From: Octopus vulgaris
Taxonomy: Eukaryota
Length of the DNA stretch: 64,000 bases
Reading direction: 5' to 3'
Assembly (NCBI GenBank): GCA_951406725.2
Contig: OX597822.1
Location: 25,420,001 to 25,484,000, forward strand
Of the stretch, positions 1,757 to 53,405 are shown in pieces. Numbering within the stretch: the stretch's first letter is position 1; each line of letters opens with the position of its first letter. The notes under the pieces were generated by a model. It did not search any database and was not told the origin of the DNA. It was given only the letters and a program-made list of their open reading frames with translations. A program made the position numbers and the translations under genes.

Positions 1757-1924
1757 GATTGTTGGCGATATTTTTACTCCGTCTTCCTTCTCTCTTGGAT
1801 TTTCCTCTCCTGTTTCTGAAGAAGAGCTTTGCTCGAAACGTAAAACGCTCTTTCTTTCCTTCCCTGAGAGTATCATTAATACTTTGCATGTACCAGTCTT
1901 TGCGATGTTGTTTTTGGATTAACT
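1757..1924 (+). mobile_element. Short hammerhead-bearing repeat (Penelope-like pLTR/non-autonomous element), family H copy 1
   Basis: Homologous to 23600-23802 (+) and 53196-53405 (-). Ends GGATTAAC directly into (TA)n. Confidence 0.65.
1812..1846 (+). ncRNA. Minimal type-I hammerhead ribozyme motif
   Basis: GTTT-CTGAAGA-A-GAGC(TTT)GCTC-GAAA-CG-TA-AAAC: helix I GTTT/AAAC, helix II GAGC/GCTC, palindromic helix III ACGT, GUA triplet. Confidence 0.65.
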
Positions 1925-2094
1925 ATATATATATATATATGAATAAATGAAAGAATGGAGTCGAACGAAGATGTTAACAAAACTCCTTTACTCTCGACAC
2001 ATTCGGTTAAACGAATTTTCCATGCTAGGATAATTCATTCACCTACTTATATATATATATATATATATATATATATATATATATATATATACAT

Positions 2095-2312
2095 ATACAA
2101 GATAAGAAAATGGAGAAATACATCTGAATCAAATATCAATTACCAGATAATACTTAATCACATACTTTATTAAACCACCACATAAGAGACTGTAGGGTTA
2201 AATATAAAAAGCAGAACAAATCAGTTTGGTGGTTTAATAAAGTATGTGATTGAGTATTATCTGGTAATTGATATTTGATTTAGATGTATTTCTCCATTTT
2301 CTTATCTTGTAT
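2095..2312. repeat. 86-bp inverted repeat with ~46-bp spacer, between (TA)n tracts
   Basis: Arms 2095-2180 and 2227-2312, about 2 mismatches. Confidence 0.92.
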
Positions 2313-2592
2313 TTGTAATTTGTGGTAAATCTTTTTACCTTTGCTCATATAATACAGTAAATGAATTGATTGCATCGCAATCATTAACATTTATGTATCA
2401 ACTTTGTTGGTTACTTCACTAGCAGTATATTGGATATATGTTATCCCATGGAGGGTTGCATTTACAATCTCAATTTGTATATATATAATATATATATATA
2501 TATATATATATATATATATATATATATATATATATATATATATATATATATATATATATATATATATATATATATATATATATATATATATA

Positions 2593-2990
2593 GGCGCAGG
2601 ATTGGCTGTGTGGTAAGTAGCTTGCTAACCAACCACATGGTTCCGGGTTCAGTCCCACTGCGTGGCATCTTGGGCAAGTGTCTTCTGCTATAGGCCCGGG
2701 CCGACCAATGCCTTGTAAGTGGATTTGGTAGACGGAAACTGAAAGAAGCCTGTCGTATATATGTACATATATATATTTGTGTGTGTATGTGTTTGTCCCC
2801 CTAGCATTGCTTGACAACCGATGCTGGTGTGTTTACGTCCCCGTCACTTAGCGGTTCGGCAAAAAGAGACCGATAGAATAAGTACTGGGCTTACAAAGAA
2901 TAAGTCCCGGGGTCGATTTGCTCGACTAAAGGCGGTGCTCCAGCATGGCCGCAGTCAAATGACTGAAACAAGTAAAAGAGTAAAAGAGTA
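2593..2990 (+). mobile_element. tRNA-derived CORE-type SINE, family A, full length
   Basis: A/B-box-like head (TGGCTGTGTGG..GGTTCAGTCCC), CORE-like TCTTGGGCAAGTGTCTT, internal (TA/TG) tract, tail GGCGGTGCTCCAGCATGGCCGCAGTC..(GTAAAAGA)n. Many copies in the window. Confidence 0.88.
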
Positions 2991-3299
2991 GTATATATAT
3001 ATATATATATATATATATATATATATATATATATATATATATATATACAAACACCTTCCTCGCTGCAGTTGTTTTCCTTCCAGCACACGATCTCAGATCA
3101 AATCACTATATATACATACGTATACACAAGCATATGCACGAATGTATACATGTATGTGTGTGTATAAACACACAAGCATACACTGACACACATATACGTA
3201 CAGACGCACGCCCTCACATTAAGCGCACGCACATACGCGCACACGTACACACACACAAAGTAGATAGCTTAGAGTAACTTAGATATGTTTGGGCTAGAG

Positions 3300-49208: not shown

Positions 49209-49467
49209 CATTTTAGTACACATACTGAAAGAGTTACTAACAGTTTCATGCTTATATGATACTTTAACTAGGCATAAAATACGCCATATATCCTCAAGCA
49301 ATCTTTCAGATACATGGCATAAATCATAGATATGCTTAGTTAAGGTATCATAAAATCATTAAACGATTAGTAGCTCTTTCAGTATGTGTATTAAAATGAT
49401 ACATATATGATACATATATATATATATATATATATATATATATATATATATATATATATATATATAG

Positions 49468-49895
49468 ACGCAGGAGTTGCTGTGTGGGTAAGTAGCTTGC
49501 TAACCAACAACACGGTTCCGGATTCAGTCCCACTGCGTGGCATCTTGGGCAAGTGTCTTCTGCTATAGCCCCGGGCCGACCAATGCCCTGTGAGTGGATT
49601 TGGTAGACGGAAACTAAAAGAAGCCTGTCGTATATATGTATATATTTATATATATATATATATGTGTGTGTATATGTTTGTGTGTCTGCGTTTGTCCCCC
49701 TAGCATTGTTTGACAACCGATGCTGGTGTGTTTACGTACCCGTCACTTAGCGGTTCGGCAAAAGAGACCGATAGAATAAGTACTGGGCTTACAAAGAATA
49801 AGTCCCGGGGCCGACTTGCTCGACTAAAGGCGGTGCTCCAGCATGGCCGCAGTCAAATGACTGAAACAAGTAAAAGAGTAAAAGAGTAAAAGAGT
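49468..49895 (+). mobile_element. SINE family A, full length
   Basis: Close match to 2593-2990. Confidence 0.9.
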
Positions 49896-50645
49896 ATATA
49901 TATATATATATATACACACACATCTGTGTGCTGTCACCTGTTGAAGCCCTACAGAGCTAGTCTGGGAAGTTTTGATACCACCTCGTATATATAAACACAA
50001 ACGCACGCAAATTATGGGCGTTTGCACGGTCACTGTCCACCAATTCGAATAAAGTCAACGAGTAGATTTTGTTGGGCTAGAAAGTGGTCAATTTACCAGC
50101 TAGAAGTAGATACTAAATCCCTTTTAAGTTGCATTCTATCGTCGTGCGTAATATGGTCCTGGGTTCCGAGCGCATATGACAGGATAGTCACGGATGGTAG
50201 GCCTTTGATCATAAGTGTGTTCAATTAGGACTGATCTGGCAATAAGCAACAACGACAATAATAATAGTTGTTCCCGAACCTGAACGTGATCGCTTGATCT
50301 GTTGGAAGTAGCAGCCAGAACTACCTCAAATCATTCCCTGTCCTCATAAAAAACGGACTCAATGGATGATGTGGTCATGGCTTACCAATATCAATAAAAA
50401 TGACGAAATGGTCACGATTGGAACGCGTCTAGTCACTGACGTGCTCAGTCACTGTTGACTTGGGACTATGCAAACCACAATAACAGCAACTATAACCACA
50501 ACCATTGTGATTCAGTCCTCGATGCGGCCCATCCAACGACTAGACTAGAAATAACAGCCAAAATTCTTAATGTTACATTCTACGATCTCCTACAATTTAC
50601 AATCTTCTACTATCTCCAACAAAAAACAAAAACAAAAAAAAAACA

Positions 50646-51230
50646 AGGGTCTTTTCGGTTTGAACGGCAGTTTTTAACATAATTTCTAGGTAACTAAACA
50701 CTTTTAAACTTCGTATACTGGTAGAATGTGTTTATAAAACATCTTTTTCTCTTGGCTTTATTGAGAAAATTCTATGGTTTGTAAGATATTTGTTGTTTTT
50801 TATCTTCAGTTTCTGCAATTTCAACCAATCAAATACGTCTATTGAGGTAAAAAACATTCTGTGCCGTATGAATATGTCCCTCGTTTAAGAAACAGATTGG
50901 GTTTATTTACATCTCTGAAGAAAACAAGATACCTATTTCTTTATTACCCACAAGGGGCTAAACACATAGGGGACAAACAAGGACAGACATAGGTATTAAG
51001 TCGATTACATCGATCCCAGTGTGTAACTGGTACTTAATTTATCGACCCCGAAAGGATGAAAGGCAAAGTCGACCTCAAGAAAACAAGATACCATCCCCCA
51101 CCCCACCCCTAACTTTAACCCTAACTAACCCTAAACCTAAAACAGATTGAAATGCTAGGGGTCATAATTATGGGTGAAAATTTCATATGACACCGCTAGA
51201 AAAAACTGCCGGTCAAACCGAAAAGATCCT
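50646..51230. mobile_element. MITE family E, complete, with nested SINE B
   Basis: ~30-bp TIRs AGGGTCTTTTCGGTTTGAACGGCAGTTTTT / AAAAACTGCCGGTCAAACCGAAAAGATCCT. CCCTAA units at ~51107-51140. Confidence 0.9.
50934..51076 (-). mobile_element. 5'-truncated SINE family B with 16-bp TSD
   Basis: TSD AAGAAAACAAGATACC at 50918-50933 and 51077-51092. Confidence 0.9.
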
Positions 51231-53195
51231 AACACAAAAAATACAAAGCAAAAATAAACTGCATATTGGATGATGTAATCCTAGATACATTTAGGCGTGA
51301 AGAAAAAATGTAGTGACAACTGTAATACCTTTGTTATCGGCCCGATTAATTAAAGCAACAACTATAACATCGATCATAACAACAAAAACATCTATATACT
51401 CCCTTCCTTTCATTTTTTTACTTGACCCCTCTCTTTTCTCTCTCTGTCCCTTTCTCTTAATCCCACGCTCAAATTCATCACCTCCCACTGTCACTCCTAC
51501 ATAGCAAGACACATCACATCACATAACAGTCCCTCGCTGTCCGATCATATAAACAAGCCTTACTCAACACCAACCAACACAACCGCAGATTACCTTTCAT
51601 TGTAATTGTTTTTACTTAAATTACACGAGTGCTTGACAAGAAGACACTTGTACCGCCCAGTACAGGACAGACAATGATACGTGTTACATTTTACCTGTTT
51701 TGCTAATTTTTTTTTTCTTATCTCTTTTTTCTTTCCGGTTATCTGCCTTGTTTTATTGGTGTCCTGAGATCTGATGGGTGTGGTGATTCTTCGTGATATA
51801 TTTTTTGTATATTTGGAAATGAGCTCCACTACATCGGACTGCTGAAAAAAATACTACTACTACTACTACTACTACTACTACTACTACTACTACTACTACT
51901 GTTATTATTTCTAAAACCATCATCGCTGCTGTCCCACATCACAATAGAGCAACTACACCGCCATCAAAGCCACCAGTTCTTCTAACTAATATTTTCAGGT
52001 AAGGAACATCAAACATCCTTTAAGAATTTATATATGTATATAAATTCATATATGTTAGTATGTATTTATATACGCGTATGAATATATGTTTAAATATAAA
52101 CAGATATTTCCCGGCTTTTTGATTTTCGCCACTCATGTATTTTGTTCAATATACTTATTTATAAAATTCATGTATACATACATACATACATACATACATA
52201 CATACATACATACATACATACATGCATGCTTACATACATAGATATAGAGAGACAGACAGACAGATAGATATACAGATATACCGACAGAAAGACAGACAGA
52301 GAGATAGTTGTATGTTTATGTAGAGAGAGAGAGAGAGAAAGAGAAAGAAAGAGAGAAAGATAAAGAGAGAGAGAGAAGAAAACAATATATATATGAATAC
52401 ATCTATATATGCACACACATAAAAATATTTATATATCTATATTGTATAGTATATATGATAATAACAACATATATGTATATGCATAAATATATATTTGTAT
52501 ATGTATATATATATATATATATATATATATATATATATATATATATAACATATATATATATATATATATACATATATACATATATATATATATATATATA
52601 CATATGTAGATGAGTGTGTATATATGTATATATGTATATATATATACATACGTACATATATATATATATATATATATATATATATATATATATATATATA
52701 TATATATATATATATATATATATATATATATATATATATATATATATATATATATATATATATAATCATATCAGAAGAAATGAAATATAGGCTTCGTTAC
52801 ATTAAATTCCAAACGTAATTTCATTGGATCATACAACCGGAAATACGGGATATAAAAACACTCATATGTTCATTTTTTACTGTGCACGCCTGTGTGTAAT
52901 ATTTATTATTAATATTAATGATTGTTTACTTCAAGGCATCGCCGACTTGGAGTCCTTGAAACTCACCAAGGTGGCACGGGGAGCACAACATTGGGGAATT
53001 TAGTCGAAAATATCGGAAGCAAGTACTTGTTTGTAAAGCCTGCTACTAATTCAGTCGGTCTTTTTTTGCCCAATAGCTAGGTTAATGGGGGCATATACAA
53101 TCTAGCGCCGGTAGCCAAGCGATCGTGGGAGACAACCAAAACGCGTGCGTACGAACACACACCACCACACACACATATGAATATATATATATATA

Positions 53196-53405
53196 TAGTT
53201 AATCCAAACATGAAAGCACAAAAAAAAACACAACAACGCGAGGACGTGGAACAAATATAGTATTATTGGACACTCAGGAAAGAAGGAAGGAAGGAGGGTT
53301 TAACGTTTCGAGCGGAGCTCTTCGTCGGAAACAAAAGAGAAGGAAAGATCCAGAGAAGGGAAGACAGAGGAAAAAAAATCGCCAACTGTACACGCACGGT
53401 CACAT
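53196..53405 (-). mobile_element. Hammerhead-bearing family H copy 3
   Basis: Minus strand GTTT-CCGACGA-A-GAGC(TCC)GCTC-GAAA-CG-TT-AAAC at ~53298-53332. Flanked by (TA)n on both sides. Confidence 0.65.

Follow-up and report, generated by a model that had tools for sequence, protein, structure and literature searches.

A dispersed, (TA)n-flanked minimal hammerhead family in Octopus vulgaris, probably derived from Penelope-like elements

A 64,000-nucleotide window of the Octopus vulgaris genome (assembly GCA_951406725.2, contig OX597822.1, positions 25,420,001 to 25,484,000; positions below are those of the window) harbors three copies of a dispersed repeat of about 210 bases that carries a hammerhead ribozyme motif (Table 1). 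The window is AT-rich, with many microsatellites, among them (TA)n and (CA)n, and tRNA-type short interspersed nuclear elements (SINEs) and decayed transposons are present. In line with an earlier note on this DNA, which had described a family of three diverged members, the copies are mutually 76.8-81.5% identical (blastn, E 9e-15 to 2e-50); a fourth copy was not detected within the window by nhmmer (next match E 6.3). The limits given in that note were nearly right for copies 2 and 3, whereas copy 1 begins about 20 bases before the quoted 1757. Mismatches to the family majority letters were counted at 5 of 171 places in copy 3, 24 of 168 in copy 2 and 42 of 159 in copy 1. All three copies are solo, and neither a tandem or inverted arrangement of pseudo-long terminal repeats (pseudo-LTRs) nor a 30-40-bp tail was found at them.

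At the 3' terminus of all three copies GATTAAC passes into (TA)n with an identical last base, as had been claimed (8, 18 and 8 units), and their 5' starts fall within ~8 nt of one point. TA runs were also found at the 5' ends, where the earlier note had overlooked them. For a position in the window, the probability of (TA)8 or more following within 3 nt is 0.026, which cubed gives 1.7e-5, the (TA)8 threshold of this estimate being picked post hoc with the data already seen.

Table 1. Copies of the family, flanking TA runs and hammerhead motifs in the window
Feature	Position	Strand	Remarks
Copy 1	about 1735-1923	+	oldest, 26% off family majority letters; 20-nt deletion near 3' end
Short TA run, about 3 units	1725-1731		upstream of 5' end of copy 1, three bases from its start
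(TA)8	1924-1940		3' end of copy 1
Hammerhead of copy 1	1812-1846	+	helix I GUUU/AAAC, canonical core with U4, bulged A, 4-bp helix II, palindromic ACGU, A at cleavage position
Copy 2	23603-23801	+	14% off family majority letters
(TA)6 (about)	23591-23602		5' end of copy 2
(TA)18	23802-23838		3' end of copy 2
Hammerhead of copy 2	23669-23703	+	canonical core with U4, G-A mismatch in helix II, 3' strand of helix I decayed
Copy 3	53198-53407	-	youngest, 3% off family majority letters
(TA)20 (about)	53408-53448		5' end of copy 3
(TA)8	53181-53197		3' end of copy 3
Hammerhead of copy 3	53298-53332	-	helices intact, C at core position 4 (53327), U at cleavage position (53302), 104 nt to 3' end

The hammerhead motif quoted in the earlier note was recovered in 3 of 3 copies. 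Its layout is that of a type I hammerhead, in which a 4-bp helix I is followed by the core, an extra A, a 4-bp helix II with a 3-nt loop and G10.1-C11.1 as closing pair, GAAA and ACGU; downstream of this palindrome, which stands in place of helix III, the cleavage base is followed by the other strand of helix I. The core CUGANGA...GAAA...UH is present in copies 1 and 2, with C at position 4 in copy 3. All three copies possess the extra base between positions 9 and 10.1, the G10.1-C11.1 pair and the palindromic 15.2-16.2 as ACGU, and a short helix I (4-5 bp) is found in copies 1 and 3 (2 of 3) and has decayed in copy 2. The extra base at 9/10.1, G10.1-C11.1, a palindromic helix III and occurrence in large variable families mark the minimal hammerheads of Penelope-like elements (PLEs), which show low activity and only as dimers (Cervera and de la Pena 2014, PMC4209133). 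A strict minimal-hammerhead descriptor matched copies 1 and 3 only and gave 0 matches in 200 shuffles of the window; copy 2 fails it because of the G-A mismatch in helix II and the decayed helix I. No Rfam hammerhead model matched copy 1 or copy 3 even at E 10, and the best 150 of 477 Rfam matches on the window were microsatellite noise.

Two further hammerheads lie in the window, at 45.7 and 58.3 kb. The family shows no likeness to them (best blastn E 0.15-0.2, and no better than E 0.2 for the 45.7-kb element), and its distinctness from the former, proposed earlier, thereby held. The 45.7-kb hammerhead (45674-45894, minus strand, core 45772, ACAUGU helix III) is flanked by inverted repeats of 54 bp, as is typical of PLE insertions, and does not fit the strict descriptor owing to an additional base ahead of GAAA. 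A third hammerhead-like family was seen at 58286-58445, where a 58-bp near-perfect palindrome (58308-58365) has CUGAUGA...GAAA on both strands; its arms run into (TA)n. It resembles an inverted pseudo-LTR pair, but has a very short helix II and a helix III that is not palindromic.

The claim that the motif is kept better than its flanks was supported modestly by the window copies, as 25 of 30 gap-free columns in the motif are invariant versus 94 of 153 elsewhere (Fisher p 0.015, motif window chosen post hoc). With the 3' strand of helix I included, the difference was weaker (26 of 35 versus 93 of 148, p 0.14). It was absent family-wide, where a hand count in public contigs gave variable sites at 2 of 35 motif positions versus 9 of 136 outside. 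Variation is thus no less frequent within the motif than around it, and these data do not demonstrate that the young family is under selection for its ribozyme.

To follow the family beyond the window, 4 of 24 public runs (X1, X10, X11 and X22) were aligned to 52850-53418 at 80% likeness with copy 3 as reference. X11 bears another organism label, while X22 consists of raw reads under the same species label as X1. Aligned contigs numbered 8746 (X1), 4547 (X10) and 5053 (X11). Depth summed across the element in X1 was 1.4-2.5e5 times that of the single unique-flank contig, a ratio that does not equal copy number and is inflated by overlapping contigs. X10 had zero depth on the unique flank, and that it represents RNA is a guess only, from which nothing firm follows. 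Within the flank of copy 3, depth at 53021-53096 was elevated in three runs (as high as 825 in X1), which indicated another low-copy repeat there. The exact motif was absent from the metagenome contigs, viral contigs and prokaryote genomes scanned, as expected for an animal repeat.

Three copies in 64 kb correspond to 47 per Mb (95% range 10-137). The Penelope-like DNA of O. vulgaris amounts to 191 Mb or 6.83% (PMC13282606), from which a genome of 2.8 Gb was worked out; if the window is typical, the genome total is about 130,000 copies (27,000-380,000). The very high copy number suggested earlier was supported by the contigs of three of the four runs (X1, X10 and X11) and contradicted by the raw reads of X22, as described below.

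The contigs also showed where the family ends. These figures come from 18 of 454 loose-end rows and are hence lower bounds: loose ends at the 5' start with a TA-rich flank were found in at least 26 contigs of X10 and at least 45 of X11, and loose ends at the 3' end with TA in at least 40 contigs of X11. At least 31 contigs of X10 end at the 3' terminus with a flank that is AT-rich yet not plain TA.

The canonical U at core position 4 (53327) accounts for 25%, 21% and 18% of depth in X1, X10 and X11, and the remaining 75-82% is by inference C, the base of copy 3. The use of copy 3 as reference leads to too low a count of diverged U4 copies; C4 is abundant in any case. The earlier note had named a consensus lacking CUGANGA as evidence against its proposal, and most of the depth indeed reads CCGACGA, which departs from it in one letter. 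We take the C4 form as a variant core rather than as the absence of a hammerhead, because the canonical U occurs in copies 1 and 2 and in 18-25% of the depth. CpG decay was considered as the origin of U4 and rejected, since the partner base 53326 and four other CpG pairs of the motif vary at less than 8%, as opposed to 18-25% at 53327. Family variants at the extra base and the G10.1-C11.1 pair are likewise all below 8%, and the sole common helix I variant (53298, 9-14% of depth) preserves a G-U pair. The majority cleavage triplet is GUU, which cleaves more weakly than GUC. A U4C change considerably lowers activity in vitro and still permits viroid infectivity (Perreault et al., PMC3088659), and in the commonest form of the family it is predicted to weaken cutting.

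Taken together, we favor, with a probability of about 0.58, the reading that this high-copy unit of ~210 bases, with shared ends, a minimal hammerhead and TA on both sides, is a protein-free pseudo-LTR derivative of a PLE that is copied in trans by a PLE targeting (TA)n. It upholds the earlier proposal of solo pseudo-LTRs or non-autonomous PLE derivatives as far as four hallmarks of the motif and the existence of hammerhead PLEs with (TA)n targets, including in Octopus, support it. The shared 5' ends favor a non-autonomous unit over random 5'-truncated ends, and discrete ends, the many copies (on whose number X22 disagrees) and the finding of no coding frame beside the copies agree with this. 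Insertion into (TA)n is indicated by 3 of 3 3' ends, by the TA-rich 5' flanks and by the loose ends in contigs. Such targets are described for Naiads and for nearly every family of the Hydra clade, in which canonical hammerheads are present, and by citation for Neptune (PMC8557442); an account of killifish Neptune (PMC12602865) contains no statement on insertion targets. Because hammerheads occur together with an association with (TA)n in the Neptune and Hydra clades, a PLE of one of these two types that is outside the set of Craig et al. is the likely parent. Non-autonomous PLE derivatives are known, such as MRC1 of Chlamys (PMC8557442), and retrozyme monomers have been described as such derivatives (bioRxiv 10.64898/2026.07.22.740005). 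The family thus appears to behave like a PLE pseudo-LTR derivative, while membership in a named PLE family is not established.

A mechanism for this trans-copied unit can be proposed from PLE biology (including PMC6765202). An RNA spanning the whole unit would be made by RNA polymerase II, either by read-through or from the pseudo-LTR's own promoter; polymerase III is disfavored because of sense-strand T runs of 4-9. A (TA)n tract would be nicked by the GIY-YIG nuclease of a PLE of the Neptune or Hydra type, whose reverse transcriptase would prime at the nick and copy the RNA up to its 5' start, beginning at the fixed 3' end that lies ~100 nt downstream of the ribozyme. The hammerhead would cut only as a dimer through its ACGU palindrome. 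The cleavage site is in the middle of the unit, with ~100 nt on either side, and therefore does not define the unit ends; since the copies span it, they would derive from uncut RNA or from longer repeats. Weak cutting would then cost a solo unit nothing and could even help it.

Several observations weigh against a trans-copied PLE derivative. An attached frame for a PLE-type reverse transcriptase or GIY-YIG nuclease, for which the earlier note had advised a search, was not found, as Pfam gave 0 such matches in 195 of the 227 low-repeat frames of the window (at least 55 aa; 32 were excluded by hand, mostly in SINE-like repeats, microsatellites or copy 1), and the proposed link to these domains was thus not shown. 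In the supplement of Craig et al. (PMC8557442), 0 of 6 copy-derived motifs of 10-17 letters occurred, and the same kind of short-motif search in the published Naiad and Hydra sequences revealed no autonomous PLE with the same 3' end. As a direct parent, Hydra-1_Obim was rejected because its hammerhead differs in sequence and has a longer helix III, and Naiad because it has no canonical hammerhead and an unlike 3' end. The run X22 gave 2 of 12,895,792 reads where 25,000-120,000 were expected; this could reflect a label shared with another organism or filtering of the raw reads. In X10, at least 4 contigs carry a different 5' extension at 53391 that could be a longer form (the upstream flank of copy 1 was tried as this extension and did not match by eye), and the 18 of 454 loose-end rows do not allow an estimate of what proportion of copies start at the common 5' end. 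Monomers fold no more stably than shuffles (z -1.4, +1.2 and -0.2), and the lowest-energy cofold of pairs is not the active dimer. Empty sites were not observed either, and the TA at the ends may therefore reflect insertion into (TA)n that was already there or a TA tail that arose with the insertion.

The alternative that survives best holds that the copies are the solo pseudo-LTR 3' ends of autonomous PLEs truncated at the 5' side, with a preferred stop point and no separate lineage, which we regard as unlikely though far from negligible. Truncated PLEs are thought to be the source of most genomic PLE minimal hammerheads, which are single motifs (PMC4209133), and PLE insertions are mostly 5'-truncated with one terminal repeat (bioRxiv 10.64898/2026.07.22.740005); the X10 contigs that run on at 53391 would fit this as well. 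Random truncation, however, would leave longer pieces that reach into the frame, none of which was found beside the copies, and the starts of 3 of 3 copies coincide within ~8 nt at the point where the loose ends with TA flank cluster.

A distinctly improbable alternative is that the copies are monomers of non-LTR retrozymes, whose tandem arrays would be transcribed, cut by dimeric hammerheads, circularized and reinserted. A length of ~210 nt, a GC content below 45% and a type I hammerhead fit this, and dispersed monomers are common (PMC7229834; bioRxiv 10.64898/2026.07.22.740005). Against it, no tandem (head-to-tail) copy is present in the window, and the joints listed comprise three small skips and none that runs backward, although short contigs could hide arrays. 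The ends of the copies are shared instead of permuted, each at a distance of ~100 nt from the cleavage site, and the prevailing core is U4C.

A SINE-like or DNA-based element (a miniature inverted-repeat transposable element (MITE) or Helitron type) with a non-PLE partner and a captured or mimicked hammerhead is very improbable: the schistosome SMalpha is SINE-like with a type I hammerhead (PMC8490949; PMC6765202), and the ends of copy 1 share a weak 18-nt inverted match of 78%, half of it TA flank, but copies 2 and 3 have no terminal inverted repeat beyond TA-TA matches, no copy has a tRNA-like head or a pair of A and B boxes, the sense-strand T runs also stand against it, the copies match none of the window's long interspersed nuclear element (LINE) or transposase remnants, and the motif has PLE-specific features. 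The A and B box patterns detected both boxes in a control, the tRNA-type SINE of the window at 45222. A Helitron was rejected because by eye no 3' hairpin was present and the ends were unfit.

The window contains a number of other repeats. Long inverted repeats bounded by (TA)n at 2090-2317, which lies 150 bases after copy 1, and at 58442-58799 may be MITEs or inverted PLE remnants. A 109-bp tandem repeat (4.9 copies, 99% identical) occupies 46253-46791. The frame at 47521-48154, without a Pfam match, resembles by eye the restriction-like nuclease end of an R4/Dong-type LINE, and (ATA)24 follows it. A decayed LTR-retrotransposon-like remnant at 6677-9000 gave weak RVT_1 and RT_RNaseH_2 Pfam matches, mariner-type transposase remnants lie at 56283-57412 and 26856-27195, and an interstitial (TTAGGG)6 at 29025-29060 adjoins SINE-like repeats.

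The older copies 1 and 2 are U4 and the youngest, copy 3, is C4. We propose as a tentative and on balance doubtful scenario that the family is a SINE-like parasite of a PLE at ~100,000 copies, whose youngest and most successful subfamily spread after U4C had crippled its ribozyme; as cutting splits the template, its loss would be favored. If this is true, old U4 and young C4 form a natural experiment on whether PLE hammerheads aid transposition or merely ride along. What they are for is still unclear according to Craig et al. (PMC8557442); the replacement of U4, as found in old copies, by C4 in the young majority provides a straightforward way to test it.

Within the literature available, no account of this family was found, nor of cephalopod hammerhead repeats beyond Hydra-1_Obim; Repbase, Dfam or the O. 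vulgaris repeat library, which holds 190 Penelope-like consensus sequences (PMC13282606), may well contain it. Like SMalpha of Schistosoma, the family is short, dispersed and high-copy with a type I hammerhead, whereas SMalpha is SINE-like, has a promoter before the ribozyme, a head that is missing here, and a hammerhead shown to be active. It shares with animal non-LTR retrozymes the short, non-coding unit, the type I hammerhead and a proposed origin from PLE pseudo-LTRs (PMC7229834; bioRxiv 10.64898/2026.07.22.740005); retrozymes are defined by tandem repeats and circular RNA, while the copies described here are solo and (TA)n-flanked with a minimal hammerhead. The Naiad PLEs of cephalopods (Naiad_Obim, Naiad_Ovul) show the same preference for (TA)n, but are old remnants there without canonical hammerheads, and the 3' end of Naiad_Obim is dissimilar (PMC8557442).

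Closer parallels are found in Hydra-clade and Neptune PLEs (Craig et al. 2021, PMC8557442), which combine (TA)n targets with a hammerhead ~100 nt from a fixed 3' end. In Hydra-1_Obim of Octopus bimaculoides the hammerhead starts at 2403 of 2507, within the last 105 nt, and in the record preceding it ~97 nt follow the hammerhead, compared with 104 nt here (PMC8557442). Unlike these elements, the window copies have no frame beside them, and Hydra-1_Obim differs by its 7-bp helix II, its 4-bp helix III and a sequence without likeness by eye. PLE-derived dispersed minimal hammerheads are known in many animals, and the kind of object is in this sense ordinary. With the hammerheads of metazoan PLE pseudo-LTRs the family has in common the core, the extra base, G10.1-C11.1, the palindrome, the 4-bp helix I and an occurrence as mostly single dispersed motifs in thousands (PMC4209133). 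It differs from them in helix II (4 bp with a 3-nt loop versus 7-8 bp in Schistosoma PLE families), in the core variant (C4 dominant versus the U3-A8 noted for PLE minimal hammerheads) and in copy number, estimated here at ~10^5 versus 2,000-9,000 per genome (PMC4209133). If this estimate holds, with ~10^5 copies and near 1% of the DNA, the family is perhaps among the most abundant families with a ribozyme motif in an animal genome.

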